A DNA stretch of 63,452 nucleotides from a virus (Duplodnaviria > Caudoviricetes), in IMG/VR virus record IMGVR_UViG_3300005512_000028, positions 1-63,452 of that record; one strand, given 5' to 3'. Shown in pieces: positions 1 to 63,452 of the stretch. A model generated the notes under the pieces. The model had not been told where the DNA came from. It searched no databases and worked only from the letters and a program-made list of their open reading frames with translations. A program made the position numbers and the translations under genes. Positions within the stretch are counted from its first letter, which is position 1, and every line of letters starts with the position of its first letter.

Positions 1-123
1 CTTGAGTCCGTACTTGGCGGCGACTGCACCAGAGCCTGTCCATCTGCCGTTCTTGTCACGGGGCTGGTGCGGACTGTAGTTGAGAACAGCGTACGCAGCC
101 TCGGCCGAGTCCATCGCCTTGGC
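1..123. repeat. Terminal direct repeat (same as 63330-63452); circular assembly overlap
   Basis: The first 123 nt are identical to the last 123 nt, and an ORF reads in frame across the join. Confidence 0.95.
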
Positions 124-2058
124 GATTCTCGCCATTCCCTCACGGTCGTCTTCCTCGCACGCACGGTGGTACTCCATCTCCAGTGCGTCGAGCTCGAATC
201 CGACCCGCTCGCTCAGTGCGGTCAGCTCCTTGCCCTTCCATCGGCTCGCTGCCTTCGCTGCACGCACCGTCTTGGTCTTGGGCTTCTCCCGCCGCATCGA
301 CTTGCGCACGGCGGTCATCGCCTTCCGACCACGCAGATGGCCTGCAGGATCCTCTCCGACGCTGGCCGGTATCCACGCGCATCTGCAGTTCGGGTGACGG
401 GGAATCAGGCCGCGTGCCTTGGCCACTGGCATGACTACGCCGTCGAGGGGCCTGCAGATCGGGCAGACCCGTTCGTCCTGCGCCGTGCTCCACTCGGCCA
501 TCATACCTACTTGCTCGACGCCCAGGTCCTCGAACGAATCGAGCTGGCCTTCTGCGTGCGCATGGATGATCTCCGTGCGCGCGAGCACGCGTGCGCGAGT
601 GCGATTGATACCCCTGATCTCTTTGTTGATCTGCCGTGCGATCTTGGCGGGGCCGTCTCCGTCCGCTATACCCTGTGCTAGAACGCGGCCTAGCTTCTGA
701 GACATGGCGTGTGAGATGCCATCGAGCTCCTCGAAGTTCCGTGTGGTGAGCAGCTTCAGTTTGCTGACGCGCTCGGGCTGGAGGAACGACGACCGGAGGA
801 ACTGCTCCTTCGATCCCCTCCAGTACTCTGCAGTCTGGCCTAGCTCTGGATGCGCGTCCGTGTACGCACGCATCGCGCCCTTGCGGTATGCGCTGTCGAC
901 GTACTTCGCCAACCACGGCTTGCCTTGGGAGTCCACGGTAAGGAGCTGCGCCTCGGTTTCCTTGCGAAACCATCGCTTGAACGCGAGGAGCTTCTGGTCG
1001 TCCGTGGCGAACTCGTATGCCCGCTCGCCTAGCTTATGAACGACCGCGTGCTCTGTAGCTGCATGGGCCAGACTGTGGTGTGCCGCCTTCGTCAGTTCGT
1101 CGTCGGCGGCGTTGAATGTTGGGCTGTAGTTGGCGGTGGGTCCGCCAACAACATCAAATGTGAACAGCGTGACGTCCGGAGAGCTCCATGTGTACTTACC
1201 GCCGGGACCGGGCTTCGCACTGGGTACTTTAACAGTCGGGTGTGTGATCCTCTCGACCCCCACTAATCGCATCCGAGTTCCCCTCGCCACCAGCATTTCG
1301 CCGCCTTCTGATAGCCTCCCACCTCTCTTGTGGATGGCGTCCATCCTTTTCTGGCCCTTCCGTGCTGCTTGTACAGTCACCGCCTTTTTCCGACCTCGTA
1401 TAACCATCATATTCCCGCTGGTTATAAATGTAGACGGCTGGATGGACGTGCTCATAAACGCACGCTCGGTCACCTCTGTTCCTATAAGCGCGCGTGCATC
1501 TTCAAGCTTTGATGGGAATTGCATACCGCCTACCCCCGCCGCGCCTCTGTATATATCGAAGTCGACCTCACTCCCTGCTCCAACAGCGGCGTCTAATCCC
1601 GATATAGCGGCTTGTACTTTGGGAGATGGCTCCTCTCCTTCCCGAAGGACACGGCCCACTTCATGGTACTCTTTGTGGGAGCCGAACCGCTCGTACTTCT
1701 GAAGAGCTTCTTTCGCCCCGGGTGTCTGTGCAATCGATTCTGCGTGCTTATCATACATCTCGTCCTCGATGACTTTACCCTCCTCCTCTGTGCGCCATTT
1801 ATGAGGAGAGGCGTCATCGCCACCACCACCGCCGCCTCCTCCACCCGATGTCCATCTGCCATCCTTGTCTCGCGGTTGATGCGGATTGTAGTTGAACACA
1901 CCAAGCGGCCTGTCCTTGAGGCCCAGTACGTCCTGCTGCACCAGCGCATAGAGAACCGCAGATCGCAATCGGAGGAAGCGCTTGTTCATCTCGGCCACGA
2001 ATCGACGCCGCAGCATCGTCGTGCGGCTCGGGTCGATCTTGAGTGGATTCGTGGCCAT
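1..2058 (-). CDS. MuF/SPP1 gp7-like head morphogenesis polyprotein, 5' part: N-helix, inserted ADP-ribosyltransferase, MuF core. Continues across the origin into topoisomerase IB (971 aa total)
   Basis: Manual translation shows no stop from the ATG at 2058 (TAATG overlap with the upstream gene) to base 1. Reads MATNPLKIDPSRTTMLRRRF...; ART motifs IYRG/FMSTS/SEGGEML; MuF motifs RARVLARTE, WSTAQDERVCPIC, IPRHPNCRC. Absent from the ORF track because it runs off the window edge. Confidence 0.9.
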   Translation of the reverse strand, partial: MATNPLKIDPSRTTMLRRRFVAEMNKRFLRLRSAVLYALVQQDVLGLKDRPLGVFNYNPHQPRDKDGRWTSGGGGGGGGGDDASPHKWRTEEEGKVIEDEMYDKHAESIAQTPGAKEALQKYERFGSHKEYHEVGRVLREGEEPSPKVQAAISGLDAAVGAGSEVDFDIYRGAAGVGGMQFPSKLEDARALIGTEVTERAFMSTSIQPSTFITSGNMMVIRGRKKAVTVQAARKGQKRMDAIHKRGGRLSEGGEMLVARGTRMRLVGVERITHPTVKVPSAKPGPGGKYTWSSPDVTLFTFDVVGGPTANYSPTFNAADDELTKAAHHSLAHAATEHAVVHKLGERAYEFATDDQKLLAFKRWFRKETEAQLLTVDSQGKPWLAKYVDSAYRKGAMRAYTDAHPELGQTAEYWRGSKEQFLRSSFLQPERVSKLKLLTTRNFEELDGISHAMSQKLGRVLAQGIADGDGPAKIARQINKEIRGINRTRARVLARTEIIHAHAEGQLDSFEDLGVEQVGMMAEWSTAQDERVCPICRPLDGVVMPVAKARGLIPRHPNCRCAWIPASVGEDPAGHLRGRKAMTAVRKSMRREKPKTKTVRAAKAASRWKGKELTALSERVGFELDALEMEYHRACEEDDREGMARIAKAMDSAEAAYAVLNYSPHQPRDKNGRWTGSGAVAAKYGLK

Positions 2059-2794: not shown

Positions 2795-5700
2795 CTATTG
2801 CTTGGATGGGAACTGCTTGCTCATGAAGGTTTCAATGCCAGCGGGCAACGAGCCCGCCTGATAACGCTTGCACGTCCACGCGCTAAAACACTCGGCAAAA
2901 GCCTCTTCTCGGTTTGTCCCGGCGTACTCGGAAACGTGCTTGGACATCTGTCCGAGACCACCTGACCTTGAAACGGCCGATCTCCACTGGGGCGTGTCGG
3001 TAAGGTAATGACCTCCGTGCATATGGGCGTGATGTGCATCTACAGCGTGAGCAAGCTCGTGACGGTATATACCCTGCGTCGACCCGCCTACCACAAACGA
3101 CCCCCCGCCCACATGCACGATATTAGGTCGTCCTGTACCACCAGATCCAATTGTAATGCTATGGTCTAATGGATCATAAAACCCAGCCGCCTTTACATCC
3201 GACCGCGAACGCAATGAGGAGTTCGTCTTTGTTAGCGTAGGCGTGTCTTGGTAATTGATACGAGCTAGCCCCGCGCCGTCGATGCCATCGAATCGGCTCA
3301 CTATGTCTGCATGCTCGTCCGATATGTGATCAAGCTGCCGAGCAACCTCCCGCTCGCGGCTGGCCTTCAATCCAACTTCACTCACACAGTCTGCGCCTGT
3401 GTCGACCTCGTCACCGTACTTGTTGCGGACAGACACATGGCAGCCCTGCTCTTCCTCCAGCCTGTCTCTCGCCTTCTGTGTTTTGGTCTGCTTAGGTGCG
3501 GCTCCTGTGTCTGCGGGGCCGTCCGTCCACGACGACGTCTTCCCGGCATCTGGCTTGTTCGCCGCATCGTCCGTCTTCTTGCCGCCACCGGCTTTCTTCC
3601 CGTGGAACTCTGGATGCTCCTGCTTGCTCTTGTTCAGGGCGTCCGTGGCCCGATTGTACTCCTCGGTCCGCTTGGCCTTCTCCTCGTCGGAGAGTCCCTT
3701 CTGCCTCATCCGTGTGTAGGCGCGCTGCCTGTCCTTATAGAGCTGCTTGACGTCGTCCGGCGCTCCCTCTGGAGGTAGCTGCAGCGCGCGCTGTTCGCCA
3801 CCGCCGCCGCCTCCACCTCCAGCGCCGCCGCTGCTCCAACGGCCGTCCTTGCCTCGCGGCTGATGCGGATTGTAGTTGGCTGTCACGCCCTCGTTCTGAA
3901 CGTCGTCGTCCTTCTGGTCATCGAACGGGGCAAGGAACACCACAACATAGAACGTGGCGAACTCGCCGTCGACGTTTCGCACGAACGTAGTCTGCCATCC
4001 GTCCCAGTGGTCATAGACCTTGACGGACTTCACCCAAGACGCGGGAATCTTTCCCTTATGGTAGAAGGCAGTGCCCTTGCCGTACGCCTTCGTTTCGGGC
4101 CCCGCGTCCGCAAAGAGCGCCTTCCCCTTCGGCACCTGAATCTCGACGATGGCGGGCTCGCCGCCGCGACCTCTCACTACAGAGGTGTCTCTGGCGTACT
4201 GGTCGGCCACGGACTTCTTCGAGCTGACATAGACCTTCCCCTTCTGGCCTCCGTCATACACCTTGGGGTCGTAGTTGCGGAACTTGGCCGGGGTGATCCC
4301 GTGCTTGGCTATGTCATTGGCGCGCTTCTCGGTCGTGCCGTGGAAGAACCGACCGCCTGCAGTCCGCTTACCGTCCTTGCCTCGTGGCTGCTTAGGATTG
4401 TAGTTGGCAACAGCGCCGTCAAAAGGGCGCTCACCTTCGTTCTGGACGCCGTCGCCCTTCGGCTTGTCGTCCTTCGGCTTGTCGTCGTCCGGTCCGTCTC
4501 CACCCTCGTCGTCCTCGTCCGACGCTGTCTCGGCCGCGTACTTCTCGGCCTCCTTGATCACGGCCTCGGCCCGATCGGGCTCCATACCCAAGACGTCGAT
4601 GAAGTACAGGGACGGAGGGTACAACTGGTCAACGCCACCGCCAACGTACTTCGCCATGGCCTCCGTCTGCTTTTGGGCCACGGCTGCCTTTTCCTCGTCG
4701 GTGACGGAGTTGAGATCTGGCCACTCGACGGTGTACTCCTTCGGCTCGGGCAGAGCGCCAACTGCAATCAACCGGTCGACGAGCGGCCTGATCAGCATGG
4801 GCGTCAGGTACTTATTCTGCCGCTTGGCCACCCGCTTGTTCCACGCCCGTGCGTCCTGAGAGGACGCGAGCTGTGCCTGCTCGGACCCAAACAGAATCCT
4901 GAACGGTATGCTCTTGGCGATTGCAATCGCCTTGAGGTGCGTGTCGACATGGGTATTGGGTGCGGATACCTGCGGGGACAGTGGCTTGGCGGTTACGCCC
5001 GTCAGCGCCAAGTACCGCTGCAGGCCGTTCGAGTAGTTGAGGAACTCCTCGCGGAGGGTATCGGCGTCAATCGTCGCCCCCTGGTTGACCAGATCGGGAT
5101 TGACCTCAAACGCCATGCCCGGGAATCCGCCGCGCCAGAACATCTCGCCAGAGCCACTGAGAATCTTGCGGAGATCGTACAGGCGGTTATAGACGTCCTT
5201 CATCCGTGGCGTGCCGTAGACCTCCGACATACCAAGGCCATCGGCAACGTGGATCACCCGTGTCCAGTGCACTCGCCGCGTGGTTTGGGACGCATTGACG
5301 TCGCCGGAAACGGCAGACCCGTCTTGGAATTGGATGTTGTACGAGATGGGTCGTCCGTAGCGGGGGCTGTCCGTGCTGGTCTCTGTACCCGCGACGGTCA
5401 CTACGCTCTCGTCGAAGACGCGCATGAAGATCAGGTCCGCGGTGGCCTTCCCCTCCTTCTCGCCTGTCTTCTGGTTCACTCCATTCGCGGGCTTCGACAA
5501 ATCCTCGCCGTCGTCCAGTCCGAGCAGCAGTACACCAAACCGGCCGATGCCCGAAAGCTCGTCGATGCGATGGAGGTAATACCAGAGATTCTTGGCGTCA
5601 TTGAGATCGCCAAGCGCGTCCTCAAACGCGGTCCTAGATGCGTCCTCCGTCTCAAAGACGATCGGGTCCATCGACCATGACTCTTCGGGCATGCATCCGA

Positions 5701-5968
5701 CCACGCGTTTGGCGATGCCTTCGCGGTCATACATCTCTCTGTAGAGATGCGCCGTGATGTCATCGGGGTAGCCGCACTCCGCATTGAAGTCGCGGTCGGT
5801 GCCATCGAGAAGAGTCCGCAGCAACTCGGACCGTGCCAACGACGCGTTCTGGATCAGCTCGCGGACCTGCGTCATCGCCTTCATCTGGTTGGCCGTGATG
5901 TCGGGGCCCTTCTTGGCCTGCGTGCGTTTCGCACGGACAGTCCGCTTGCCTGTTGATGCCTTAGCCAT
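2795..5968 (-). CDS. Portal protein (DUF1073-like) with two C-terminal tagged cargo domains: Tpt1/KptA-like ART fold and HExxH zincin
   Basis: Follows TerL; portal motifs (YDREGIAKRVV, RVHWTRVIH, IPFRILFG, VEWPDL) in about the first 480 aa, then FFHGTT...VYVS and YRHELAH...SEYAGTNREEAFAE. Confidence 0.9.
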   Translation of the reverse strand: MAKASTGKRTVRAKRTQAKKGPDITANQMKAMTQVRELIQNASLARSELLRTLLDGTDRDFNAECGYPDDITAHLYREMYDREGIAKRVVGCMPEESWSMDPIVFETEDASRTAFEDALGDLNDAKNLWYYLHRIDELSGIGRFGVLLLGLDDGEDLSKPANGVNQKTGEKEGKATADLIFMRVFDESVVTVAGTETSTDSPRYGRPISYNIQFQDGSAVSGDVNASQTTRRVHWTRVIHVADGLGMSEVYGTPRMKDVYNRLYDLRKILSGSGEMFWRGGFPGMAFEVNPDLVNQGATIDADTLREEFLNYSNGLQRYLALTGVTAKPLSPQVSAPNTHVDTHLKAIAIAKSIPFRILFGSEQAQLASSQDARAWNKRVAKRQNKYLTPMLIRPLVDRLIAVGALPEPKEYTVEWPDLNSVTDEEKAAVAQKQTEAMAKYVGGGVDQLYPPSLYFIDVLGMEPDRAEAVIKEAEKYAAETASDEDDEGGDGPDDDKPKDDKPKGDGVQNEGERPFDGAVANYNPKQPRGKDGKRTAGGRFFHGTTEKRANDIAKHGITPAKFRNYDPKVYDGGQKGKVYVSSKKSVADQYARDTSVVRGRGGEPAIVEIQVPKGKALFADAGPETKAYGKGTAFYHKGKIPASWVKSVKVYDHWDGWQTTFVRNVDGEFATFYVVVFLAPFDDQKDDDVQNEGVTANYNPHQPRGKDGRWSSGGAGGGGGGGGEQRALQLPPEGAPDDVKQLYKDRQRAYTRMRQKGLSDEEKAKRTEEYNRATDALNKSKQEHPEFHGKKAGGGKKTDDAANKPDAGKTSSWTDGPADTGAAPKQTKTQKARDRLEEEQGCHVSVRNKYGDEVDTGADCVSEVGLKASREREVARQLDHISDEHADIVSRFDGIDGAGLARINYQDTPTLTKTNSSLRSRSDVKAAGFYDPLDHSITIGSGGTGRPNIVHVGGGSFVVGGSTQGIYRHELAHAVDAHHAHMHGGHYLTDTPQWRSAVSRSGGLGQMSKHVSEYAGTNREEAFAECFSAWTCKRYQAGSLPAGIETFMSKQFPSKQ

Positions 5969-6014: not shown

Positions 6015-6368
6015 CTACTTCTGGTTCAGGTACTTCACAATGTCGAATATGGGTGCGTGCTCCACGGACCCCTTGCCCATCGAACGGTCCCGGTCCCACA
6101 GCTTAACGATCTCGTCGTCCGAGTACCCCTTGTCTCGGAGGTACTTGTGATCGCTCTCACTGTAGTTGGGGTGGGCCATGACCTGCTGGGAGGTCTTGCG
6201 CGACGCCCCACCACCACCGCCACCTCCGCCGCCTCCACCGGTCGACGCGAAACGACCGCGCTTGTCACGGGGCTGCTTGGCGCTGAAGTTCATCACCGGC
6301 AACTCGAGCGGTGTCTCGTCAACGGGGACGCCGTCGTCGATCACGTTCACAATCATGCCCGTTTTCAT
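6015..6368 (-). CDS. Small tagged cargo protein (VMN|FSAKQPRDKRGRF, poly-Gly, unknown helical domain)
   Basis: 117 aa, AGGAG RBS; shares its leader with 6390-6887. Confidence 0.8.
   Translation of the reverse strand: MKTGMIVNVIDDGVPVDETPLELPVMNFSAKQPRDKRGRFASTGGGGGGGGGGGASRKTSQQVMAHPNYSESDHKYLRDKGYSDDEIVKLWDRDRSMGKGSVEHAPIFDIVKYLNQK
6202..6320. repeat. About 120-bp near-identical repeat, copy 1 (encodes DETPLELPVMNFSAKQPRDKRGRFASTG-polyG)
   Basis: Matches 6727-6848 with a few synonymous changes and one Gly codon fewer. Confidence 0.9.
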
Positions 6369-6389: not shown

Positions 6390-6887
6390 CTAGTCGAATC
6401 GGATACGATCTCGGATGCTGATGACGTGGTCGGTCATGCTGCTCGACTTCAGCGTGGCCGTGCGTCCCTTCTTCGTCCACGTCTTGTTGGGGTGTCCCAT
6501 GTGGAGTGCGCCCGGCGGGGAGGTATCCGCCTTACCCCACTTGGCGCTGATAGCCCTCTCCACGCGTGCCCTCTTGCCACTCACCGCGAAGTGAGCTTCG
6601 CCCATCGCGGCAGAGTACGAGAGCTGGCCGACCTCCAGTTTGTTAGACGCGAGGCCCTTTCGCAAAGTAGATGCGTCGTTGAGGGGCGTCCGCTTGCTCT
6701 CCGCGTCGGCAGAGCCCGCTGCGGATGACGCCCCACCGCCGCCGCCTCCACCTCCGCCGCCTCCACCGGTCGACGCGAAGCGACCGCGCTTGTCACGGGG
6801 CTGCTTGGCACTGAAGTTCATCACCGGCAACTCGAGCGGCGTCTCGTCGCTGGGCCGCGTGTCTGCGTTGACCAGAAACCCATGCAT
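6390..6887 (-). CDS. Small tagged cargo protein (same leader, different C-terminal domain)
   Basis: 165 aa, starts immediately after the TerL stop. Confidence 0.8.
   Translation of the reverse strand: MHGFLVNADTRPSDETPLELPVMNFSAKQPRDKRGRFASTGGGGGGGGGGGGASSAAGSADAESKRTPLNDASTLRKGLASNKLEVGQLSYSAAMGEAHFAVSGKRARVERAISAKWGKADTSPPGALHMGHPNKTWTKKGRTATLKSSSMTDHVISIRDRIRFD
6727..6848. repeat. About 120-bp repeat, copy 2
   Basis: Matches 6202-6320. Confidence 0.9.
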
Positions 6888-20516: not shown

Positions 20517-21959
20517 GTGAGACGACGAAGAGTAGACTCCGGGCTGGAACGCCAGTTCCTCATCGCCATGACTACGTCGAAGGCGTTCCTCGCCACGGCA
20601 TCGTCCGCACTAGACCCAACGCTGCTCCAATCCAAGCCCGCCCAGCGGATAGCGGAGTGGTGCCTAGAATACTACCGGGCCAACGACGTTGCGCCGTGTC
20701 GCAACATCGAGGCTGTATACTACGCCTGGGCCGAGAGCGGCGAAAGTAGCGACACGGAGGCCGAGGCGGTTCACGACCTGCTGGAGTTCCTGTCTGGCGA
20801 GTTCGACCGGGCGGGGGAGCTGAACATACCACATCTCCTCGACGAGATGGGCCGGTACATAACAATACGCTCGCTGGCCCGACTACAGGACTCGTTGGCC
20901 GGCGCGCTGGCTGGGAACGATAGGGAGGCTGCGGAGGAGCTGGTTACATCGTATACGTCCCCGTTGATAGGACAAGGCGTCGGCTTCGACCCGCTGACGG
21001 ACCGCGCCGCTTGGCATCGAGCGTTCGCAGACCCGCAGGAACCCCTCATCCGATTCCCCGGAGACGTCGGGCGCTTTTTGAATGCGGCGCTGACTCGCGA
21101 TGCGCTCATAGCAGTACAGGGGCCGGAGAAGTCAGGCAAGACGCACTGGTGCGTTGAGTTTGCGATGCGTGCCCTTCGATGCCATCGGAAGGTAGCTCTG
21201 TTTGAGGTGGGCGACCTTAGTGAAAGCCAGATCATGCTAAGGCTTGGCGTGCGGCTTAGTGGCCTGCCCCTCTGGAAAGACCAGTGTGGCGAGGTACCCA
21301 TTCCGTTCAAACTGACACACAGGCCCAAGGAAGAGATGGAGGTGGACGAGCGAGGAGCCCCACGGGTCGACGTGTCATACAAGTACAGAGACTGCAAACA
21401 GACCGTATCGTACAAGGCATGCAGACGCGCCTGTCGGAAGTACCTGCGTGCCTGTGGTATCACGCGAGAGCACCCCGGCATTATGGTGTCCGTCCATCCT
21501 AATACATCGATCAGCGTTGGCGGCATTGACATAGTACTTCGGCGCTGGCGGCAGGAGCGCGGCTTCGTGCCCGACGTTGTCATCATAGACTACGCCGACA
21601 TCCTCGCGCCGGAGGAGACGTCCGGCAGATTCGACTTCCGCCACCAGGTCAACGAGACGTGGAAGGCGCTGCGTCGCTTGAGTCAGGAGTGGCACGCCCT
21701 TGTGGTAACGCCTACACAGGCCGACGCCGCAAGCTACGCGGCCGATGTACAGAGCATGCGTAACTTCTCCGAGGACAAACGGAAGATGGCCCACGTCACT
21801 GGCGTGCTTGGCCTGAACCAGACGGACCGGGAGAAGGAGATAGGGGTACAGCGGTTGAACTGGATCATACTTCGAGAGTCGGGATTCATCTCCCGTCGGT
21901 GCCTACACGTTGGCCAGTGCCTGTCGCTGGGCCACGCCTTTACATGCGGAGTGCTATGA
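20517..21959 (+). CDS. DnaB-like replicative helicase
   Basis: GPEKSGKT, VIIDYADIL, LRRLSQE, VTPTQ, SEDKRK. Confidence 0.85.
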   Translation: MRRRRVDSGLERQFLIAMTTSKAFLATASSALDPTLLQSKPAQRIAEWCLEYYRANDVAPCRNIEAVYYAWAESGESSDTEAEAVHDLLEFLSGEFDRAGELNIPHLLDEMGRYITIRSLARLQDSLAGALAGNDREAAEELVTSYTSPLIGQGVGFDPLTDRAAWHRAFADPQEPLIRFPGDVGRFLNAALTRDALIAVQGPEKSGKTHWCVEFAMRALRCHRKVALFEVGDLSESQIMLRLGVRLSGLPLWKDQCGEVPIPFKLTHRPKEEMEVDERGAPRVDVSYKYRDCKQTVSYKACRRACRKYLRACGITREHPGIMVSVHPNTSISVGGIDIVLRRWRQERGFVPDVVIIDYADILAPEETSGRFDFRHQVNETWKALRRLSQEWHALVVTPTQADAASYAADVQSMRNFSEDKRKMAHVTGVLGLNQTDREKEIGVQRLNWIILRESGFISRRCLHVGQCLSLGHAFTCGVL

Positions 21960-21960
21960 A

Positions 21961-22716
21961 ATGAGACCTGTTCTGTTTGGCTACTTCGGAAGCAAGGTGA
22001 AGATCGCACGGCGGTATCCGGCCCCTGTCTACCCGACCATCGTCGAGCCGTTCGCTGGCGCGGCGGGCTACTCGTGCTGGCATTACAAACGGAACGTGAT
22101 GCTATGGGACATCTACCCGGTCGTGGTCAAAGTGATATCGTGGCTGATCCGTGCGAAGCCCGAGGACGTTCTGAAGCTCCCGCTCCTGAAGCGAGAAGAC
22201 CTCATCGACGACCTCCCCATCAGCGACGACGCCAAAGCCCTGCTGGGGTTTTGGGCAGGGCAGTGCTACAAGGCACCGGCCAAGCGGCTGTCGATCTGGG
22301 GTGACCAGTACCCGGACACAAGTAAGTGGTCATTCAAGTGCAGACGCCGGTTGGCTGTGACCGTGACGAAGATCAAGCACTGGAAGATACACCAGGGCAG
22401 CTACACTGACATTCCCGTCGACGAGATCGGCCCCGCCACGTGGTTTGTCGACCCCCCATATCAGGTAATGGGGAAGTCGTACCAGCACGGGTCCGATGCT
22501 ATTGATTACAAGGCACTGGGCGAGTGGTGCCGTGCACTGCCCGGACAGGTCATCGTCTGCGAAAACCTGGGGGCGGACTGGCTGCCCTTCCGCCCCTTCT
22601 GCAAACTGGTAGGGGCGAACAGGCGGCATAAGGGCGACAGTAAACTGAGAACCAACACCGAGGCCATCTGGACGAAGAATGGTAATGAGTACCCGTCGCT
22701 GCTAGGAGATATATGA
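21961..22716 (+). CDS. Dam-like adenine methyltransferase, paralog 1
   Basis: YFGSK, EPFAG, DPPY. Confidence 0.8.
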   Translation: MRPVLFGYFGSKVKIARRYPAPVYPTIVEPFAGAAGYSCWHYKRNVMLWDIYPVVVKVISWLIRAKPEDVLKLPLLKREDLIDDLPISDDAKALLGFWAGQCYKAPAKRLSIWGDQYPDTSKWSFKCRRRLAVTVTKIKHWKIHQGSYTDIPVDEIGPATWFVDPPYQVMGKSYQHGSDAIDYKALGEWCRALPGQVIVCENLGADWLPFRPFCKLVGANRRHKGDSKLRTNTEAIWTKNGNEYPSLLGDI

Positions 22717-22717
22717 T

Positions 22718-23479
22718 ATGGCCGTGCGTCTCTTCTCATACTTCGGAAGCAAGGTGCGTATAGCCAAACGCTATCCGGCTCCTGTCTACCCGACCATCGT
22801 CGAGCCGTTCGCTGGCGCGGCGGGCTACTCATGCCTGCATTTTCACAAGCAGGTCCGGCTATGGGAAGTGAACCCTACCATTCACGGCGCGATCAACTAC
22901 ATAATCCAGAGCGACCCGGAGGCGATTCGCAGCCTCCCGCTGCTTGGCAATGCAGACTCCATCGACGACCTCCGTATCGAGCAGGAGGCAAAGTGGCTCA
23001 TTGGTTTGTGGTCGGCCACCGCCGCAGCGCATCCCGGCAAGTGCCTGTACAAGTGGGCCCGCGAGGGAGGCAACAAGAGCGGATATTGGTCGGCCAAGTG
23101 CAGACGTCGGTTAGCGGTGACGGCAGCGAAGATTAAGCACTGGGAGGTGCATCTCGGCAGCTACACCGACATCCCCGTCGACGAGATCGGCCCCGCCACG
23201 TGGTTTGTCGACCCTCCGTACCAAGACGCGGGGAGGCACTACCCATTCGGGTCGTCTCTGATAGATTACACTAAGCTAGGCGAGTGGTGCCGTGCACTGC
23301 CCGGACAGGTTATCGTCTGCGAAAACGAGGGGGCGGATTGGCTGCCGTTCCGCCCGTTGTGCAGTTTCTCGGGCGCAGCAAAGGCAGGCAAGAGCAGACG
23401 CATAACCACAGAGGCCGTGTGGATGCAGAATGGGAACGAGTACCCCGGACTTTTCCGGCGCGCGAACGACGCCCGGTGA
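22718..23479 (+). CDS. Dam-like adenine methyltransferase, paralog 2
   Basis: Same motifs; long DNA identity with paralog 1. Confidence 0.8.
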   Translation: MAVRLFSYFGSKVRIAKRYPAPVYPTIVEPFAGAAGYSCLHFHKQVRLWEVNPTIHGAINYIIQSDPEAIRSLPLLGNADSIDDLRIEQEAKWLIGLWSATAAAHPGKCLYKWAREGGNKSGYWSAKCRRRLAVTAAKIKHWEVHLGSYTDIPVDEIGPATWFVDPPYQDAGRHYPFGSSLIDYTKLGEWCRALPGQVIVCENEGADWLPFRPLCSFSGAAKAGKSRRITTEAVWMQNGNEYPGLFRRANDAR

Positions 23480-29976: not shown

Positions 29977-31182
29977 ATGGTGAAGAAAGGCAGAACGAAA
30001 CGGAAGCGAGTCTCGCGCGAACAGGTACGCGCAAACGCCAAGCAGGGCAACAAGACGGGGCAGAACTGGGTGTCGCTGCCCGATGGCGTTCGGGAGTGGG
30101 CCCCGGAGAAGGCAGGCAGCGTGGTTATTGACGTACTCCCGTACGAGGTGACGGACACGATGCACCCGGACCGCGTCGAGCCGGGGTCCCTGTGGTACAA
30201 GCGGCTGTTCCTCGTCCACCACAACGTGGGCCCGAACAACGAGTCCGTTGTGTGCCCGACCTCCGTCGGCAAGCGATGCCCCATCTGCGAAGAGCGGACG
30301 AAGCTCAAGCAGAACTGGGAGGAGAACAAGAAGCTCATCCGTGCGTTGAACCCGCAGCGGTTTGTCGCATACAACATCGTCGACCCGGATGACGAGGACA
30401 AGGTCGCCGTGTTCATCTTCTCGACTGGCAAGTTCGCTGACGCCCTGGCGAAGGAGCTCGAAGAGGGCGACGAGGGCGACCTCTACTTCTTCGACGTCGG
30501 CAAAGACGGGCGCTCCCTCAAGGTGCGCTTCTCCGACGCCACCTTCGAGGGCCGCAAGTACGTCGAGGCCACGCGCATCGACTTCCGCAAGCGGGACGTC
30601 ATGGACGAGGACGACGTGCTCTCCCGCGTCGTCAACCTCGATACCATGCTCAATGTCATGTCCTACAAGAAGCTCGCGGCGCTGTTCATGCAGCTGGATG
30701 ACGACCTGGGCGACGAGCCGAACGACGACCCGGACGACGACGACCCGGACGACGACCCGGACGACGACCCGGACGACGACCCGGACGACGACGACCCGGA
30801 CGACGACCCGGACGACGACGACCCGGACGACGACCCGGACGACGACCCGGACGACGACCCGGACGACGACGACCCGGACGACGACCCGGACGACGACCCG
30901 GACGACGACCCGGACGACGACCCGGACGACGACCCGGACGACGACCCGGACGAAGACGACGAGCCGGCTCCTGCGAAGAAGAAGTCGGAGAAGAAGGCAG
31001 CCAAGAAGTCGACGAAGAAGGCAGCCAAGAAGTCGGAGAAGAAGGCAGCCAAGAAGTCGGAGAAGAAGGCAGCCAAGCCGAAGTGCCCGCACGGCGGGAA
31101 GTTCGGCAAGGACTTCGAGACGATGAATGAGTGCGACACCTGCGAGATGTGGGACGCGTGCGAGGAAGCCGCCAACGAGTAG
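29977..31182 (+). CDS. gp32-like ssDNA-binding protein with acidic, basic and Cys tail
   Basis: HH...VVCP...CPICE Zn site; about 80-aa D/P tract; KKAA repeats; terminal CPHGG...C..C...C. Confidence 0.75.
   Translation: MVKKGRTKRKRVSREQVRANAKQGNKTGQNWVSLPDGVREWAPEKAGSVVIDVLPYEVTDTMHPDRVEPGSLWYKRLFLVHHNVGPNNESVVCPTSVGKRCPICEERTKLKQNWEENKKLIRALNPQRFVAYNIVDPDDEDKVAVFIFSTGKFADALAKELEEGDEGDLYFFDVGKDGRSLKVRFSDATFEGRKYVEATRIDFRKRDVMDEDDVLSRVVNLDTMLNVMSYKKLAALFMQLDDDLGDEPNDDPDDDDPDDDPDDDPDDDPDDDDPDDDPDDDDPDDDPDDDPDDDPDDDDPDDDPDDDPDDDPDDDPDDDPDDDPDEDDEPAPAKKKSEKKAAKKSTKKAAKKSEKKAAKKSEKKAAKPKCPHGGKFGKDFETMNECDTCEMWDACEEAANE
30724..30960 (+). repeat. Coding tandem repeat (GAC)3-4-CCG, encoding DDDP
   Basis: Directly visible 12/15-bp units. 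Confidence 0.95.
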
Positions 31183-56584: not shown

Positions 56585-56911
56585 TTACTCGGCCTCCTTA
56601 TCCGGAAGAGGGGAATTGCGGTTCGCCTCCGCCCATTCCATGACCGTGTCGAAGCTCTTGTTCGCTTCGCGGACAGTGAAGATCAGCAGATCGACCTGTT
56701 GCTTGTAGATGACCGCCTGCTGTTCTACGGTGGCGTCTGCCGGCACAAGCCACGGAGGCTCGTTGGCGGCATCATAGTCCTTGACCGTGACCTTGAGCGT
56801 CGCGGTCGCCGTTGCCAAACACGCCTTGGTGCCCGACGGCATGTTGGAGCAGCCCGCAAAGACGCAGGCCAGCGCCAGCACGAGAATCAGAAACCATCTA
56901 TACGGCCCCAT
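56585..56911 (-). CDS. Lipoprotein (spanin-like candidate)
   Basis: Signal peptide ending VFAGC. Confidence 0.65.
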   Translation of the reverse strand: MGPYRWFLILVLALACVFAGCSNMPSGTKACLATATATLKVTVKDYDAANEPPWLVPADATVEQQAVIYKQQVDLLIFTVREANKSFDTVMEWAEANRNSPLPDKEAE

Positions 56912-58088: not shown

Positions 58089-59144
58089 CTACGCCGCAGC
58101 GCCGTGCACCAGACCGCTGTTGCTGTTCTGGTCCAGCCGAATCTGCGGGACGAGAATGCACATGACCTTGAAGTTCAGCTGGAGGCCGCCCTTGCTCTCC
58201 CACTGAACCGTTGTGATCTCCATGCCGACGACGACACGGACGACGTCGCTGGTCATCTGCACCAGCAGCAGCGTGTAGCCCGTGAGGTAGTCGAGCGTGT
58301 CGACGCCCTCGATGCCGTTGATCTTGGCCAGCCGCTCGCGGAGGGTGTTGTCGCCCTTGCTCGTCGAGTAGTCGGCGTCCATGTACGTGTCCCAGCTCGG
58401 GGAGCAGTACAGTTTCCACGGGCCGTAGTGATACGCGTCCTGCGACTGCTTCCGCATGGCGAGTACCTCTTCAACCGTCTGGGCACCAGTCCACCCGCTG
58501 GAGGTCGGGTTGGTGAGCACCTTGGTCAGACGACCGGTCCGGTTGGTGTAACCGTAGATCGTGCCGCCGCCGTAGGTGTACGAGGACGCCGTGCCAAGCG
58601 TGAGCTGCTCGGCCATCTCCGCGACCCGGCGACCCGCCAACTCCGCGGTCGTGGTGTCGAGCGGGCTGCCGCCGTTGCGGCTCGCCATGATCTGGCGGGC
58701 GCTGAACCCGAAGTCCTTGTGGATGATCGGGAGGGGCAGGTTGGTCAGCTCGAACTCGGGCCGATCCGCATTGCTCTCGCGGAGGCCGTCCATGCTGATG
58801 GAGGCCTCGGTGATGTCGCTCATGGTCTCCGTCTCGAGCACCGTCTTGCCCATGCCGTTGGGGATGACGTACTCGAGGCCCCGACCACGCAGGTCGGCAA
58901 CGGCACGGAGGCGCGGCTTGGCTGCCTTCACGACAGCCTCGTCCAGCGTCTTCCAGTCGTCCTTCCGCAGCGTCGCCGTCGCATTGTGAATCGGCACTGC
59001 CTTGATGGTGCCGCCCTCGTTGACGGTGATGTAGCTCCTGCCGTCCTTGCCCTGCCAAGGACGCAACGCGTTGACGTTGCCATGCACCTGCATGATGCGG
59101 CTCGCAACGTCACCGTGCGCCTGGCCATTCAAAACGTAGTCCAT
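58089..59144 (-). CDS. Major capsid protein (HK97 fold, encapsulin/linocin-like)
   Basis: TLRKDDWKTLDEAV, PLPIIHKDF, TIYGYTN; follows protease and decoration genes. Confidence 0.9.
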   Translation of the reverse strand: MDYVLNGQAHGDVASRIMQVHGNVNALRPWQGKDGRSYITVNEGGTIKAVPIHNATATLRKDDWKTLDEAVVKAAKPRLRAVADLRGRGLEYVIPNGMGKTVLETETMSDITEASISMDGLRESNADRPEFELTNLPLPIIHKDFGFSARQIMASRNGGSPLDTTTAELAGRRVAEMAEQLTLGTASSYTYGGGTIYGYTNRTGRLTKVLTNPTSSGWTGAQTVEEVLAMRKQSQDAYHYGPWKLYCSPSWDTYMDADYSTSKGDNTLRERLAKINGIEGVDTLDYLTGYTLLLVQMTSDVVRVVVGMEITTVQWESKGGLQLNFKVMCILVPQIRLDQNSNSGLVHGAAA

Positions 59145-59748: not shown

Positions 59749-61248
59749 CTAGTCGAACGTCATCGCCGGAGGCGTCAGAGGCTCCTCCTCCTCGTTGCCC
59801 GTGATGTCGGCGGGCTCGGCCATGCCGTCGTAGACGGCGGGCTTGGCCCCGGCCGTGGCCAGCGCCGCGATCTTCTCGAGCTCTCCGATGCTCTTGGTCG
59901 CGAGCTGCTCCTTCGTGAACGTGTTGGCCTTGTTCGCGGTGATGACGGTCACGATCCTCTGGCGCTGCGCCTTGTGGGCACGAACGCCTGCCTCGAGCAT
60001 GTCCCGCATGCCCTCGGGAGCGTTGGCGATGAACTCCTCGACCGTCTGCGGCGGCTCTTCGTTGCCGTCCTCGTTCTCCACGGGCTCGTCCTTGTCCTCG
60101 GACTCGTCCTTGTCCTCGGGCTCGTCCTTGTCCTCGGACTTCTCCGCGTTCTGGACGCCCGCTGCGATCTTCGTCAGATGCGCCTCGTCGAACGCGAGCA
60201 GCGCGTCCCTGTCATCCTCATCCCAGTCCGTGTTGGCGTTGCTGATGAGGTCCTCGACGACCTGTTCCTTGTCCATCGCTTGCTCCTTGTTATGTGTTAC
60301 CCGTTTACCGTCTGTGCCTGTATAGCTCACGACGCGCCTCACTTCCTTCCGCCCCGCAAGGTCAACGGAGGCCGTCTTGGTCTTCTTGTCGAACGTGTAC
60401 GACGCGCTGTACATCTTGCCGTCGTCCTCATAGATGAAGTGCTTGTCGAACACCTCCACTACATACACGGCCGCGGCTGGCATACCCACCGGGTTCGTGG
60501 CGGTGTCTGAGAGTTCGGTGCGGATGGCGGCTTCGATGTCCTGATGGGACGACGCGTTGTCGATTCGCCGCATGGCCAGTACCATGGCGATCTCCGCGTC
60601 ACTCATCGCCGGGTCCAACGCGGCGTTCTGCAGTAGGCCCGCCCCGTCCATGACGCTGCACGCCCCCTTCTTGTCGGGCAGCAGCGCCAGGTGATCCGGC
60701 CGGAAGTTACTGACGGTGCCCGTGTAATCCTCGTTGTTCCACGTGCCCGCCACGCCATCGATGTCGGTGAACAGGCCAGTGGAGACCTCCATGACCTTGC
60801 CTTCCTCCAGCGCGGCGAGCACCCGCTCGTCGACGGCACGGAGGCGATCCGGCTCCAGCCACGCGTCTGCCTTGAGCTTGCCGCCCTCGACGCGCGTGTT
60901 GAGGATGACGCCCACCTTGCGACTGGTAAGGACGTCGGGGTCGCATGCGGACACGGGCCTGCCGTTCATCGTCGGATGGTAGACTACGATGGGCTTGTGA
61001 TTCCAAACGCCCGCGCTCTTCTCCAGCTCGTCCGGCGAGTAATACAGCGGGCCGTTGGTGCCGTTGTGGACGCCCTCAGTGATCATGACCATGGGAGCGA
61101 CGAGCCAGTCGCGTCCCTCCATCTGGTCGTGGCGTACGGAGGGCTTGACGTTGGCGGTGACGGATTGGAGTGCGTTGAACACGGTGACGCGTTCTGCGAC
61201 CGCTGATTCGTTCGCCACCATTCGCGTCCGCTTCGATTTGCGAGGCAT
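59749..61248 (-). CDS. DUF2213-like prohead protease plus scaffold
   Basis: EGVHNG, WNHKPIVVYHP, EVSTG, PDHLALLP..GACS..DGAG; acidic scaffold C-half. Confidence 0.88.
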   Translation of the reverse strand: MPRKSKRTRMVANESAVAERVTVFNALQSVTANVKPSVRHDQMEGRDWLVAPMVMITEGVHNGTNGPLYYSPDELEKSAGVWNHKPIVVYHPTMNGRPVSACDPDVLTSRKVGVILNTRVEGGKLKADAWLEPDRLRAVDERVLAALEEGKVMEVSTGLFTDIDGVAGTWNNEDYTGTVSNFRPDHLALLPDKKGACSVMDGAGLLQNAALDPAMSDAEIAMVLAMRRIDNASSHQDIEAAIRTELSDTATNPVGMPAAAVYVVEVFDKHFIYEDDGKMYSASYTFDKKTKTASVDLAGRKEVRRVVSYTGTDGKRVTHNKEQAMDKEQVVEDLISNANTDWDEDDRDALLAFDEAHLTKIAAGVQNAEKSEDKDEPEDKDESEDKDEPVENEDGNEEPPQTVEEFIANAPEGMRDMLEAGVRAHKAQRQRIVTVITANKANTFTKEQLATKSIGELEKIAALATAGAKPAVYDGMAEPADITGNEEEEPLTPPAMTFD

Positions 61249-61385
61249 ACATAACTCCCAATAAGATAAGGGGCCCGTTTCTGTAACAGGCCCCTTGCTG
61301 GGTATCTGCACGCGATCTTCGATTGTGCATATGCTATACGATGGCAACCTACAGCGATGTGCATCCCCAGTCGAGCAAGAATCTC

Positions 61386-61585: not shown

Positions 61586-62464
61586 TCAGTCCGCCTGCAG
61601 GTCCGTGTCCACTATCGTCAACGACCCGATCCGCCGCACTCCTCGTACCTTCAGAGAGGAGCCCCGCGGCAGCAGCATCTCTCCCTCGTCACCGAGCCCG
61701 CCAGAAACCCACCGCGATGTATTCAGCGCGTGCGTTCCCTTCGGGGCGTCAATCGTCATCACCACCGCGTGCTTCTGGCCACCCCCACGGGAGAAGTCAA
61801 TCGCGGCCGACGGCTTCGCGGTCGTCGACATGAATGCCTTGTCCTGAATGACGCCGCCGACCTTATACGAGGGCGGCGTGTCCATGCCTATGCCCCTGTA
61901 CAACGTGGTGTCCTTCCCAAGAGGCGTCGACTTGGAGATGGCAGAGTCTATGTCGGCGGCGTCCTTGTGATCCTTCCCCTTGCGGAGGCGTGTGTTTATG
62001 GAATCCCACTTCGCCTCGGAGACATAGCCGCGCACGGCGGTGTGTTCCTCTGCCGTGAACGAGACGCCCTTCGCTGTATCCACGGCCTTCTGCTGTCCCG
62101 CGTCCCCTTCCAACTTGCGCTTGGCCACGAGGTTGCTCATCGAGTCGACCACCCGTGCCTCTTGCTCCGGCGTTGTGGCTCTCTTGAGCTTGGTCTCATA
62201 GAACCCGCGCTCCATCGGGTCGAGTTGCCCTGCTAGCTCCTGCGGCGTGTCGCTACCCCCACCGCCACCGCCGCCTCCTCCGCCCGACGTCCACTGCCCG
62301 TCCTTGTCACGCGGTTGATGCGGACTGTAGTTGGACACTATCTCATCGTCATCGGGGTCGGCGGGGTCGAATCCAAGCTCGCGCACCACGTCCGGCGGCG
62401 TCTGGTTCATCTCGACGTCGTCGGGGTCGTAGTCCAGACCCATCTCTTTTGGCACCCTGCTCAT
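61586..62464 (-). CDS. Tagged ADP-ribosyltransferase (R-S-E, VIP2/Alt-like)
   Basis: Acidic leader, VSN|YSPHQPRDKDGQW plus poly-Gly, INTRLR, LYRG, FMSTT, DEGEMLLPRG. Confidence 0.9.
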   Translation of the reverse strand: MSRVPKEMGLDYDPDDVEMNQTPPDVVRELGFDPADPDDDEIVSNYSPHQPRDKDGQWTSGGGGGGGGGGSDTPQELAGQLDPMERGFYETKLKRATTPEQEARVVDSMSNLVAKRKLEGDAGQQKAVDTAKGVSFTAEEHTAVRGYVSEAKWDSINTRLRKGKDHKDAADIDSAISKSTPLGKDTTLYRGIGMDTPPSYKVGGVIQDKAFMSTTAKPSAAIDFSRGGGQKHAVVMTIDAPKGTHALNTSRWVSGGLGDEGEMLLPRGSSLKVRGVRRIGSLTIVDTDLQAD

Positions 62465-62471
62465 TGATACC

Positions 62472-63452
62472 TCATGGCTTAATTGGCGTGAAGACACGCG
62501 GGTTGATATAGCTCTGAAGCGCGACGACGGGTGTGTTTCCTAACTGCGTGGAAACGCGTCCCGCTACGTCCATGACGGATGCCTTGTACTCCTTCATATT
62601 CTTGGCCTTGGGCATGTCAGCTACCATCGCGCGTGCGGATGTCGTTCCCTTCAGCGTGCGGTAGTCCTTGGGCTTGTACTTACCACCGGACACCGCCTTA
62701 CTATACCCTCGCATCTTACCATCCGTGGTATCGAACAATCTACCACGGGGGCCCGCCTTTTTCGCCCGTGCTAGGACGTCTGCACGGACAGCCTTGTCTT
62801 CTACAGGTATAGAAAGGCTGACCCCCTTCTTGCCTACGAAGTCCAGTCTGACGTCAGAGCCGTTTTGAACGACGTGCCTCCCCTGCAGCGTCGTGGCACC
62901 GTACGCCTGCTTAGCCGCCTTCGTATCGCGCGTGCTACCGGGGCGGATGCCTGTTACCTGAACCAGTCGTAGTGCAGACGCCGCCTCTGCCGTGTCGTGG
63001 TCTTTGCTGACGGCGTCCTTCGCTGTCTTTGCGAACAGCGACTTCTGGTCGCGCTCGAGTGCGGTCACACGTTTGAACTTAGCCTCGCCCTGCTCCTTCG
63101 AAAACTTCTCCGAGTATATACGCACGGTGCGCCCCTTGGCGTCTTGGCCGACCGCCTGTACCTTCGTCGCGGGGTTATCGCTGACGTAGGCGTCCGTCCA
63201 ACCAGGGGGAATCGGCCTGCCGTCTAGGGTGTGACTGCCTTCGCCCTTCCGTACCATAACGGGGTCGCCGTGCTTGTTGACTCTGGGTTTGCCATCCTTG
63301 TCCAGAGCAGGCGTGGCCTCCGCGGCGGGCTTGAGTCCGTACTTGGCGGCGACTGCACCAGAGCCTGTCCATCTGCCGTTCTTGTCACGGGGCTGGTGCG
63401 GACTGTAGTTGAGAACAGCGTACGCAGCCTCGGCCGAGTCCATCGCCTTGGC
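62472..63452 (-). CDS. Topoisomerase IB domain; 3' part of the MuF polyprotein starting at 2058
   Basis: IPPGW, GIRPG, FVGKKG, KDYRT, LGNT, SYINP; in frame with 1-2058 through the terminal overlap. Confidence 0.9.
   Translation of the reverse strand, partial: AKAMDSAEAAYAVLNYSPHQPRDKNGRWTGSGAVAAKYGLKPAAEATPALDKDGKPRVNKHGDPVMVRKGEGSHTLDGRPIPPGWTDAYVSDNPATKVQAVGQDAKGRTVRIYSEKFSKEQGEAKFKRVTALERDQKSLFAKTAKDAVSKDHDTAEAASALRLVQVTGIRPGSTRDTKAAKQAYGATTLQGRHVVQNGSDVRLDFVGKKGVSLSIPVEDKAVRADVLARAKKAGPRGRLFDTTDGKMRGYSKAVSGGKYKPKDYRTLKGTTSARAMVADMPKAKNMKEYKASVMDVAGRVSTQLGNTPVVALQSYINPRVFTPIKP
63330..63452. repeat. Terminal direct repeat (same as 1-123)
   Basis: Exact match. Confidence 0.95.

Follow-up and report, generated by a model that had tools for sequence, protein, structure and literature searches.

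A 971-residue MuF polyprotein of a tailed virus with an ADP-ribosyltransferase cassette at a recurrent insertion site

The DNA analysed here, referred to throughout as the window, comprises the 63,452 nt of IMG/VR virus record IMGVR_UViG_3300005512_000028 (Duplodnaviria; Caudoviricetes) and is a complete viral genome. Its MuF head protein is part of a single polyprotein encoded by a 971-aa gene, which is split only by the linearisation of the contig, and in which an ADP-ribosyltransferase (ART) cassette lies between the first helix and the core of MuF whilst a type IB topoisomerase follows at the C-terminus. Comparison with homologues, structure prediction, base composition and the duplication of a short border motif support the conclusion that the ART is an insertion inside MuF, and the architecture, taken alone, is very probably correct. 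Enzymatic cargo carried by MuF and by polyvalent proteins is a known theme; what is new here is a recurrent insertion site inside MuF.

Bases 1-123 of the window are 100% identical to bases 63330-63452 (repeat family D7), and the record is classified as a virus with direct terminal repeats that is 100% complete. On the linear contig, the gene appears as two open reading frames (ORFs):

2058..1, minus strand: MuF-side ORF, 686 aa, ATG start, open at the window edge
63452..62472, minus strand: topoisomerase-side ORF, 326 aa, 5' end open

The last 41 residues of the 686-aa ORF are also the first 41 of the 326-aa ORF, because the 123-nt repeat encodes both. When the 63,329-bp unit is read as a circle, the two ORFs become a single ORF of 971 aa (2058 to 1, then 63329 to 62472, minus strand), the start ATG of which overlaps the stop codon of the small ORF upstream (TAATG). 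An earlier note on this DNA, made from the sequence alone, had proposed one frame running from 2058 across the origin to 62472, and the rotated contig yields exactly this frame over the exact 123-nt overlap; the circular join rests on that overlap, on the kept frame and on the homologues described below. The layout, coordinates and motifs that the note assigned to the protein were all found to be correct by translation, Pfam and repeat comparison. The closest isolated viruses are haloarchaeal tailed viruses when judged by the 971-aa protein (37% identity, core only) and Brevundimonas phages when judged by the capsid protein (38%). A database protein of 580 aa (P0001) equals the window protein up to residue 574 (window 337-2058, minus strand), after which six differing residues are followed by a stop; it resembles a frameshift variant from another contig, and a frame of this type would uncouple the topoisomerase from MuF. 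The polyprotein is laid out as follows:

1891..2058, minus strand: MuF N-terminal helix module, residues 1-56, ending V-F-N; matches positions 1-53 of a hidden Markov model (HMM) of uninserted homologues
1819..1890, minus strand: tag 1, Y-N-P-H-Q-P-R-D-K-D-G-R-W-T-S plus nine Gly, residues 57-80 (repeat family D5)
1129..1809, minus strand: ART domain, residues 84-310 (AlphaFold2 model, Foldseek, alignment and third-codon-position GC content, GC3)
1111..1137, minus strand: downstream boundary T-A-N / Y-S-P-T-F-N, residues 308-316, with two Asn sites
1030..1110, minus strand: linker, residues 317-343, missing in uninserted homologues
253..1029, minus strand: MuF core, residues 344-602 (Pfam PF04233, phrog_758; HMM match 338-602)
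79..252, minus strand: MuF C-terminal helices, residues 603-660, ending A-V-L-N (657-660)
28..78, minus strand: tag 2, residues 661-677, inside the 123-nt repeat and hence present again at 63357-63407
62472..63329, minus strand: type IB topoisomerase module and stop codon, residues 687-971 (Pfam Topoisom_I; PDB 2f4q)

The MuF core is matched by Phage_Mu_F (PF04233) at residues 455-562 (E 1.2e-17, 65.1 bits vs a cut-off of 29.6) and by phrog_758 (head morphogenesis) at residues 344-586 (E 1.2e-31, profile positions 70-309 of 326), and it carries a C-x-x-C (532-535) and a C-x-C motif (558-560). The topoisomerase module starts behind tag 2, within the terminal repeat; the 326-aa piece matches Topoisom_I (PF01028) with E 4.4e-16 (59.4 bits vs a cut-off of 23.7) and the bacterial type IB topoisomerase of PDB entry 2f4q with E 9.2e-22, in an alignment that reaches the C-terminal S-Y-I motif, the Tyr of which we take to be the catalytic Tyr. 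In a model of the full-length protein, the predicted local distance difference test score (pLDDT) is 91-95 at residues 11-40, mostly 80-95 in the core, and below 50 at residues 73-94 and 325-350. A fold assignment for MuF from a 686-residue model was tried and rejected: the matches were generic helical bundles only, at chance level for helical models, the best being a designed bundle (Z 11.0, root-mean-square deviation 5.0, 169 aligned).

The identity of the ART cassette was tested by fold, because its Pfam match lies below the cut-off (ADPrib_exo_Tox, PF03496; residues 109-265, E 0.0044, 16.8 vs 23.4 bits). The domain was modelled with AlphaFold2 using ten sequences (pLDDT 73.6, predicted template modelling score 0.71), and the top PDB matches of the model in Foldseek were CDTa, Plx2a, iota Ia, VIP2, Vis and C3 (E 5e-10 to 1e-7, template modelling score about 0.6 on the query) among 136 matches at E up to 0.001; for CDTa the Foldseek probability was 1.00 at E 5e-10. 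Judged by this model, the assignment of an ART fold to the cassette holds. R171 (nt 1546-1548), S203-T-S205 (nt 1444-1452) and E254, the last residue of E251-G-G-E254 (nt 1297-1308), are invariant or nearly so in the ART alignment and align with catalytic residues. The E/Q-x-E motif of the ADP-ribosylating toxin turn-turn loop is replaced by E-G-G-E, with the first Glu one residue farther off, and the alignment thus bears out the earlier reading of GGE rather than ExE. The nearest relatives, P0063, P0064 and P0065, share the displaced Glu as E-G-A-E, a trait of a small ART subgroup, and themselves exceed the PF03496 cut-off. An exhaustive search with residues 84-310 against 1.84 billion representative proteins returned only 13 representatives at E up to 0.001, and the three nearest ARTs (37-38% identity) are C-terminal modules of one MuF protein and two Mu-type portal proteins, one of the latter with an Acb1 domain behind it. 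The cassette is 27% identical to a second, E-x-E-type ART encoded in the same genome. Compared with C2/C3-like R-S-E ARTs, its fold, Arg, S-T-S and catalytic Glu align, whereas the identity is 15-18%, E-G-G-E stands in place of E-x-E and the Pfam score is under the cut-off. Together with tag 1, the segment extends over residues 57-310 (nt 1129-1890).

That the ART lies inside MuF is most directly seen from the homologues. An HMM was built from 26 homologues with contiguous helix and core and run on 61 non-self homologues, which are mutually related, so that the counts are not of independent events. Helix and core were contiguous in 30 of the 61 and split in 23, the remaining 8 being N-terminally incomplete; in the split proteins the break falls at HMM position about 46-54 and is filled by 53-665 extra residues, and the window protein is broken likewise. 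The segment is therefore not a normal part of MuF, as the 30 homologues without it attest, and the claim that the ART was inserted within MuF stands. Other inserts at this site were found to include ART-PolyVal, 2H/Acb1-like phosphoesterases, C39 peptidases, an inorganic pyrophosphatase (InPase) domain and GGACT, and many have no Pfam match. Since differing cargo occupies the same point in 23 of 61 homologues, the MuF loop is a recurrent insertion hot spot, and the internal cassette is not peculiar to one virus. Among the best 80 loci of a viral-contig sample (77 distinct MuF ORFs), 67 ORFs were uninserted, 6 inserted and 4 partial. A contig designated L021 has two tagged cassettes at the MuF site, a further insertion later and C-terminal cargo too. 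Loci L150 and L151 share the same MuF, but a tagged cassette of 456 aa is present in L151 and missing from L150, where a remnant of 65 residues still holds the opening residues of the tag and the final part of the cassette; a cassette has therefore been gained or lost between close relatives.

Structure prediction and base composition point in the same direction. Helix 1-56 and core 338-640 were predicted as two separate chains, in three runs with three controls: the interface score ipSAE (interaction prediction score from aligned errors) was 0.82 in all three runs and 0.00 in the best control, the runs shared at least 77% of contacts, and partner pLDDT was at least 74. The ipSAE mark is passed by 58 of 80 solved complexes and by 2 of 110 mismatched pairs, and is roughly applicable here (own alignment used). 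The prediction supports packing of the N-helix on the MuF core, so that the cassette would sit within the MuF fold. Recall of a known complex is unlikely, because a PDB sequence search gave no solved MuF relative (best E 0.39). The helix has a GC3 of 0.79, and the core and C-terminal helices one of 0.78, compared with 0.56 for the ART and 0.48 for tag 1; the value for the ART is lower than that of every gene of at least 100 aa in the genome.

Further variation was observed among the homologues. P0053 has an intein inside the MuF core, at HMM position about 209. In several homologues a second break, at HMM position about 262-271, separates the zinc-ribbon end of the core from the C-terminal helices and is a possible second cargo site; an intein or an extra break was seen in P0053, P0014, P0044, P0045, P0046, P0048 and P0059 and at locus L021. 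A C39-type cysteine peptidase is found in the cassette between N-helix and core in P0047, P0051, P0054 and P0057, and in the first three it opens the cassette directly behind a T-A-N or V-H-N border. In these four viruses, the C39 cassettes might process Gly-rich tags.

Two short elements mark the borders of the cargo. The first is a tag with the consensus [FYW]-[ND]-P-x-Q-P-R-D-x-x-G-x-W followed by a Gly-rich tail, of which the window holds five distinct DNA copies (72-83% identity to the reference copy) and two weaker variants (6199-6296 and 6727-6824). Outside the MuF gene it is found in the following genes:

2795..5968, minus strand: portal protein, 1057 aa, with two tagged C-terminal modules (tags at nt 4364-4405 and 3836-3877)
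6015-6368 and 6390-6887, minus strand: two small tagged genes, 117 and 165 aa; match to phrog_38358 over the tag
61586..62464, minus strand: second ART gene, 292 aa, composed of leader, tag and ART (E-x-E type)

The borders of the portal modules are V-A-N and T-A-N, with Asn plus tag as in MuF. Both small genes encode a leader ending E-T-P-L-E-L-P-V-M-N, the tag variant F-S-A-K-Q-P-R-D-K-R-G-R-F, 11-12 Gly and a small cargo, and free capsid cargo is the probable role of their products. At locus L022 the tag is preceded by a leader of similar type (D-E-T-P-L ... T-L-N).

The distribution of the tag was followed with a degenerate DNA pattern for [ND]-P-x-Q-P-R-D-x-x-G-x-W, scanned over viral contigs. 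It was found in at least 119 stretches, and the 80 loci kept yielded 95 matches in 86 distinct contexts. The residue preceding the pattern, which was left free, is aromatic in 84 of the 86 tags, and Gly accounts for 27% of the 12 residues past the tag Trp vs 9.5% overall. Asn two residues ahead of [ND]-P occurs in only 6 of these 86 tags, as against all eight boundaries in the window; tag and Asn site are two separate elements. Thirteen of the 86 tags are found no farther than 40 residues into the frame, several of them directly behind the start codon, and because some proteins begin directly with the tag it must be more than a cleavage signal. Pfam families were tallied in 43 of the 84 distinct tag-bearing ORFs: ART (4), portal families (4), prohead protease S78 (3), zeta toxin (2), MuF (2), PI3/PI4-kinase (2), and one each of topoisomerase I, NUDIX, restriction-fold toxin and polyvalent-protein domain. 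From these families it follows that in many viruses head-associated cargo begins with the tag. When longer proteins were searched by word index for the 40-aa region of the tag, the window's own protein was the only match. When the 20-aa tag was compared with isolated phages by tblastn, weak matches (E 2-7) were obtained in 19 records, and the one inspected was genuine: gp14 of Mycobacterium phage Predator (locus L208, 2998-3759, plus strand) opens with M-S-F-N-P-R-Q-P-R-D-R-L-G-R-W. This basic protein of 253 aa is annotated as a head maturation protease and is encoded between the portal and MuF genes; the tag is therefore present in cultured actinophages.

The second element is a short Asn motif, [T/V/A/I]-x-N, at the borders themselves. 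The motif was counted as [TVAIFLMP]-x-N, with the expectation taken from random windows of the same proteins. Among 18 analysable inserted proteins, it was found up to 18 residues past the helix anchor in 11 (3.8 expected) and up to 12 residues before the core anchor in 14 (2.5 expected); three of the four downstream misses have His, and the fourth is the window protein, in which the sites lie farther upstream. Uninserted proteins have one motif site between helix and core in 20/31 cases (6.0 expected). The insert is thus flanked by two copies of a motif that is present once in uninserted MuF. In the window protein, these are V-F-N on one side and T-A-N / Y-S-P-T-F-N on the other, and homologue inserts are likewise flanked above background, which upholds the proposal that the cassette is bracketed by Asn sites; T-A-N / Y-S-P can also be read, as was suggested, as a first Asn site followed by a truncated tag with the shortened start Y-S-P. 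At all eight boundaries in the window, the Asn directly precedes an aromatic residue.

The motif recurs in two further head genes, the products of which would link it to capsid maturation:

59749..61347, minus strand: prohead protease/scaffold protein (DUF2213), 532 aa, the proposed processing enzyme
58089..59144, minus strand: major capsid protein, carrying near residue 57 the conserved site P-x-x-N / A-T-A-T-L-R-K

The protease/scaffold protein matches DUF2213 (E 3.9e-7) and PHROG 'head maturation protease' families and has an acidic, scaffold-like tail. It contains [VTI]-x-N-[YFA] six times vs 0.71 expected, a number reached in 0 of 5000 shuffles; the sites used to define the motif do not enter into this count. 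In 37 distinct protease/scaffold homologues from related contigs the motif was counted 114 times (31.4 expected), whilst on such contigs it was counted 21 times in capsid proteins (20.2 expected), five times in decoration proteins (8.5 expected) and 66 times in portals (32.5 expected). The homologues in these comparisons are mutually related, and the totals do not represent independent events. The Asn is kept at N66 in 38/38 sequences ([IVL]-[TV]-x-N), at N264 in 36/38, at N370 in 35/38 and at N472 in 37/38 (I-T-A-N). In the capsid protein, the site N / A-T-A-T-L-R is found at residue 50-69 in 34 of 38 sequences by pattern, and Asn was seen there by eye in the other four. With capsid proteins of isolated phages the alignment does not begin before query residue 42-58, which would be in keeping with a propeptide of about 57 residues at the N-terminus. 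Statistically, one short motif is common to cargo borders, protease/scaffold and capsid protein, and this fits the reading of [T/V/I]-x-N as a maturation-protease site. As a rule, assemblin-like prohead proteases recognise a hydrophobic P3 and a fixed P1 residue (L/I-x-E in T4). The prohead protease of SPN3US is reported to have 14 cut sites in nine head proteins, itself included, with several motif copies within propeptides (PMC10052503).

These observations can be assembled into a sequence of events to which we give about an even chance of being right as a whole. MuF, a minor head protein of the SPP1 gp7 type, would act as the carrier for two enzymes. Helix 1 and the rest of the helical bundle would make up one fold with the loop between them as the plug-in site, and this loop would hold a tag plus ART cassette acquired from elsewhere, a tag plus topoisomerase IB cassette being attached at the C-terminus. 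SPP1 gp7 is brought to the procapsid by the portal (PMC6316719), and by analogy with this portal-binding protein MuF may bring the whole polyprotein into the procapsid. The DUF2213 protease/scaffold would then cut after the Asn of [T/V/I]-x-N, at N56, at N310 and/or N316, and at N660, to give MuF as two chains, the helix remaining attached to the core by non-covalent contacts, together with free ART and free topoisomerase. The freed enzymes would start with aromatic-N/S-P-x-Q-P-R-D-x-x-G-R-W and a poly-Gly tag, and would leave with the DNA at infection. Uptake through MuF, the cleavage, the identity of the protease and the ejection are what we infer here; for excision of the cassette by cuts on both sides, indirect support comes from the concentration of the motif in the protease/scaffold and from the conserved capsid site. 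A more general rule can be put forward tentatively, and is in our view rather doubtful in its full extent: a two-part address code, in which [T/V]-x-N would be read by the prohead protease whilst the N-terminal tag would keep or pilot the enzyme in the head, so that any enzyme cassette, whether placed in the MuF loop or at the C-terminus of MuF or portal or encoded on its own, would be packaged, released and injected, with MuF serving as a split-tolerant scaffold on which helix 1 stays bound.

Several observations weigh against cleavage by the DUF2213 protein at the Asn motif. In the window protein, 28-34 residues separate the downstream Asn sites from the core anchor that follows, as compared with 3-8 in homologues. 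The P1 residue is not always Asn, given that His is found at 3/18 downstream sites and that three inserts start at T-I-L without Asn, and among IMG/VR relatives Asn lies within 10 residues of the core anchor in only 29 of 59 analysable uninserted junctions, Gln being seen by eye at many. The motif was partly defined from the sites that it is to explain, so that only the counts in the protease/scaffold and capsid proteins are independent, and some further conserved Asn residues inside the protease domain (e.g. N214) may be structural. C39 peptidases occur among the homologue inserts, and processing may differ between viruses. Finally, no description of a prohead protease with Asn at P1 was found in the open-access text searched. 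The open-access literature, judged by titles and the starts of abstracts, likewise yielded no mechanism for DUF2213.

The strongest alternative, which we consider unlikely all the same, is that the polyprotein is never cut, so that tags, poly-Gly and Asn stretches are flexible linkers within one multidomain polyvalent protein that acts as such after ejection. The linkers are predicted to be disordered at the low-pLDDT stretches given above, a domain that is joined to a loop by long linkers need not be excised, and the N4 virion RNA polymerase, ArdC and TraC1 are packaged or transferred unprocessed (PMC5512222). The conserved Asn before the core is also present in 20 of the 31 uninserted MuFs counted above, and could be structural. 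An uncut protein leaves unexplained, however, why the same short motif stands on both sides of unrelated inserts, why it is enriched 3.6-fold in protease/scaffold homologues and not in capsid or decoration proteins, and why a V-M-N leader precedes the tag in small stand-alone cargo genes; moreover, a three-enzyme protein of 105 kDa would need to traverse the tail channel.

Release by an enzyme other than the DUF2213 protein appears less probable still. The candidates are the zincin-like last module of the portal, which has an HExxH motif and weak ATLF and M90 Pfam matches (E 0.02 and 0.1), a host protease, and the C39 cassettes of relatives acting on Gly-rich tags. C39 peptidases cut after Gly-Gly, and they are found at the same MuF site in the four homologues named above. 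Metallopeptidase domains have also been proposed to autoprocess polyvalent proteins (PMC5512222). Set against this, the zincin matches are far under the cut-offs, MPTase-PolyVal (PF18818) was not found in the genome, and no C39 match was obtained in the 10 distinct head-module proteins scanned with Pfam, the remaining genes not having been scanned. In addition, enrichment of the motif in the DUF2213 protein itself is what would be expected of a self-processing prohead protease.

Self-cleavage without any protease, through cyclisation of either the border Asn or the Asn of the N-P bond in the tag, is very improbable. Asn-based self-cleavage is known from asparagine peptide lyases and from type III secretion switch proteins with their NPTH motif, and the window does have Asn before an aromatic residue at all its boundaries, as well as N-P in three tags. 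Such a mechanism needs an invariant Asn, yet the residues vary: Asp occupies the [ND]-P position in 52/86 tags elsewhere, S-P or S-A stands there in 5/8 window tags, and the boundary Asn is replaced by H or Q in homologues. The long frame itself could be an artefact of mis-joined contig ends, or a pseudo-fusion through a lost stop codon or frameshift, as variants such as the 580-aa P0001 might suggest, but this can be practically dismissed given an exact 123-nt overlap through which the frame is maintained, a similar GC3 in helix, core and C-terminal helices, MuF core, tag and cargo in one frame on other contigs (P0003, P0044, P0055, L021), and 23 homologues with inserts at the same internal site.

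The polyprotein can be compared with several known systems. MuF toxins have been defined by a C-terminal toxin domain (Jamet et al. 2017, PMC5576092; PMC6316719), in agreement with what the earlier note held to be established. As in these polymorphic toxins, MuF in the window carries a variable enzymatic domain, the gene lies near that for the portal and delivery is thought to occur at infection, and the topoisomerase IB follows the C-terminal pattern. The window ART differs in being internal, between helix 1 and the core, a position that the definition does not cover; 'internal', 'linker', 'cleav' and 'processed' do not occur in the main text of PMC5576092. A small immunity gene lies downstream in MuF polymorphic toxins; in the window the tagged 292-aa ART gene follows and then a 56-aa ORF. 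MuF polymorphic toxins are those of temperate phages and prophages; in the window no tyrosine integrase (PF00589) was found, other integrase types not having been searched.

Fusions of MuF and portal proteins to ARTs, nucleases and 2H enzymes are already known from the description of polyvalent proteins (Iyer, Burroughs, Anand, de Souza and Aravind 2017, PMC5512222), in which several unrelated enzymatic domains are joined with MuF or portal, packaging and injection are proposed, and proteolytic release is discussed. With ART, MuF and topoisomerase IB in one frame, the window protein belongs to this class. In the part of that account available, MuF is one domain fused to others, and a fixed internal site, the Q-P-R-D tag and the Asn motif are not mentioned. 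More widely, no description of a fixed insertion point in MuF, of the Q-P-R-D tag or of an Asn motif linked to a DUF2213 protease was found in the open-access text searched; supplements may list such architectures. T4 Alt and internal proteins, and the heads of SPN3US and phiKZ with their gp245-type proteases, likewise combine diverse cargo bearing one short peptide with a protease that cuts scaffold, itself and cargo (PMC3012670, PMC10052503), and T4 internal proteins share nothing but the capsid-targeting sequence (PMC3012670). Those cargo proteins are encoded by separate genes and have N-terminal propeptides, whereas in the window the cargo forms part of the MuF and portal chains, as an insert or as a fusion, Asn is the residue proposed for P1, and the tag would not be cut away but would stay with the cargo after release.

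Demarcation motifs of polymorphic toxins, such as VENN in CdiA and DPxGL in Rhs, also place a short peptide at the border between a constant carrier and interchangeable cargo, where conserved DNA could guide cassette exchange. The motif in the window differs from these, stands in a viral capsid context, occurs at several borders per protein and is also found at the N-terminus of free proteins.

MuF and portal fusions are the main known phage route for bringing counter-defence and takeover enzymes into the cell, and their published descriptions are of end-to-end fusions. The internal plug-in site shows where hidden cargo sits, in proteins that domain-order annotation files under labels such as 'N-terminal domain + MuF', and a portable tag with a candidate protease motif would render the rules of loading and release testable. 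If these rules are true, the injected proteome of uncultured viruses would be predictable from sequence, and chosen proteins could be loaded into the capsids of laboratory phages. The gene also illustrates that contig linearisation can conceal the largest gene of a viral genome.

On the minus strand, the head module is ordered as small and large terminase, the two small tagged genes, portal, two small ORFs and the MuF gene, which is followed by the second ART, the protease/scaffold, a decoration protein and the capsid protein. The second ART matches the PHROG 'Alt-like' family; its likely start is ATG 62464, 8 nt past the MuF stop, with GAGG upstream. A programmed frameshift from MuF into this gene was considered and ruled out, as the second ART has its own ATG and GAGG. 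ART-PolyVal (PF18760) was not found in the genome, which is a weak answer as control genomes gave no match either.

Three minor features lie elsewhere in the genome. Gene 30070-31182 (plus strand) encodes a repetitive, very basic product and has the highest GC3 of the genome (0.92), and positions 30645-31098 within it are taken up by a long array of period 12/15 nt and, behind it, Lys-rich repeats of 12 nt. A structural-module protein of 212 aa (56898-57536, minus strand) matches phrog_4603, annotated as alpha-2,3-sialyltransferase (E 2.4e-25). Lastly, two adjacent genes of 268 and 253 aa at 21910-23479 (plus strand) share two blocks of about 80% DNA identity (21982-22118 with 22739-22875, and 22327-22603 with 23087-23363), which identifies them as a tandem duplication.

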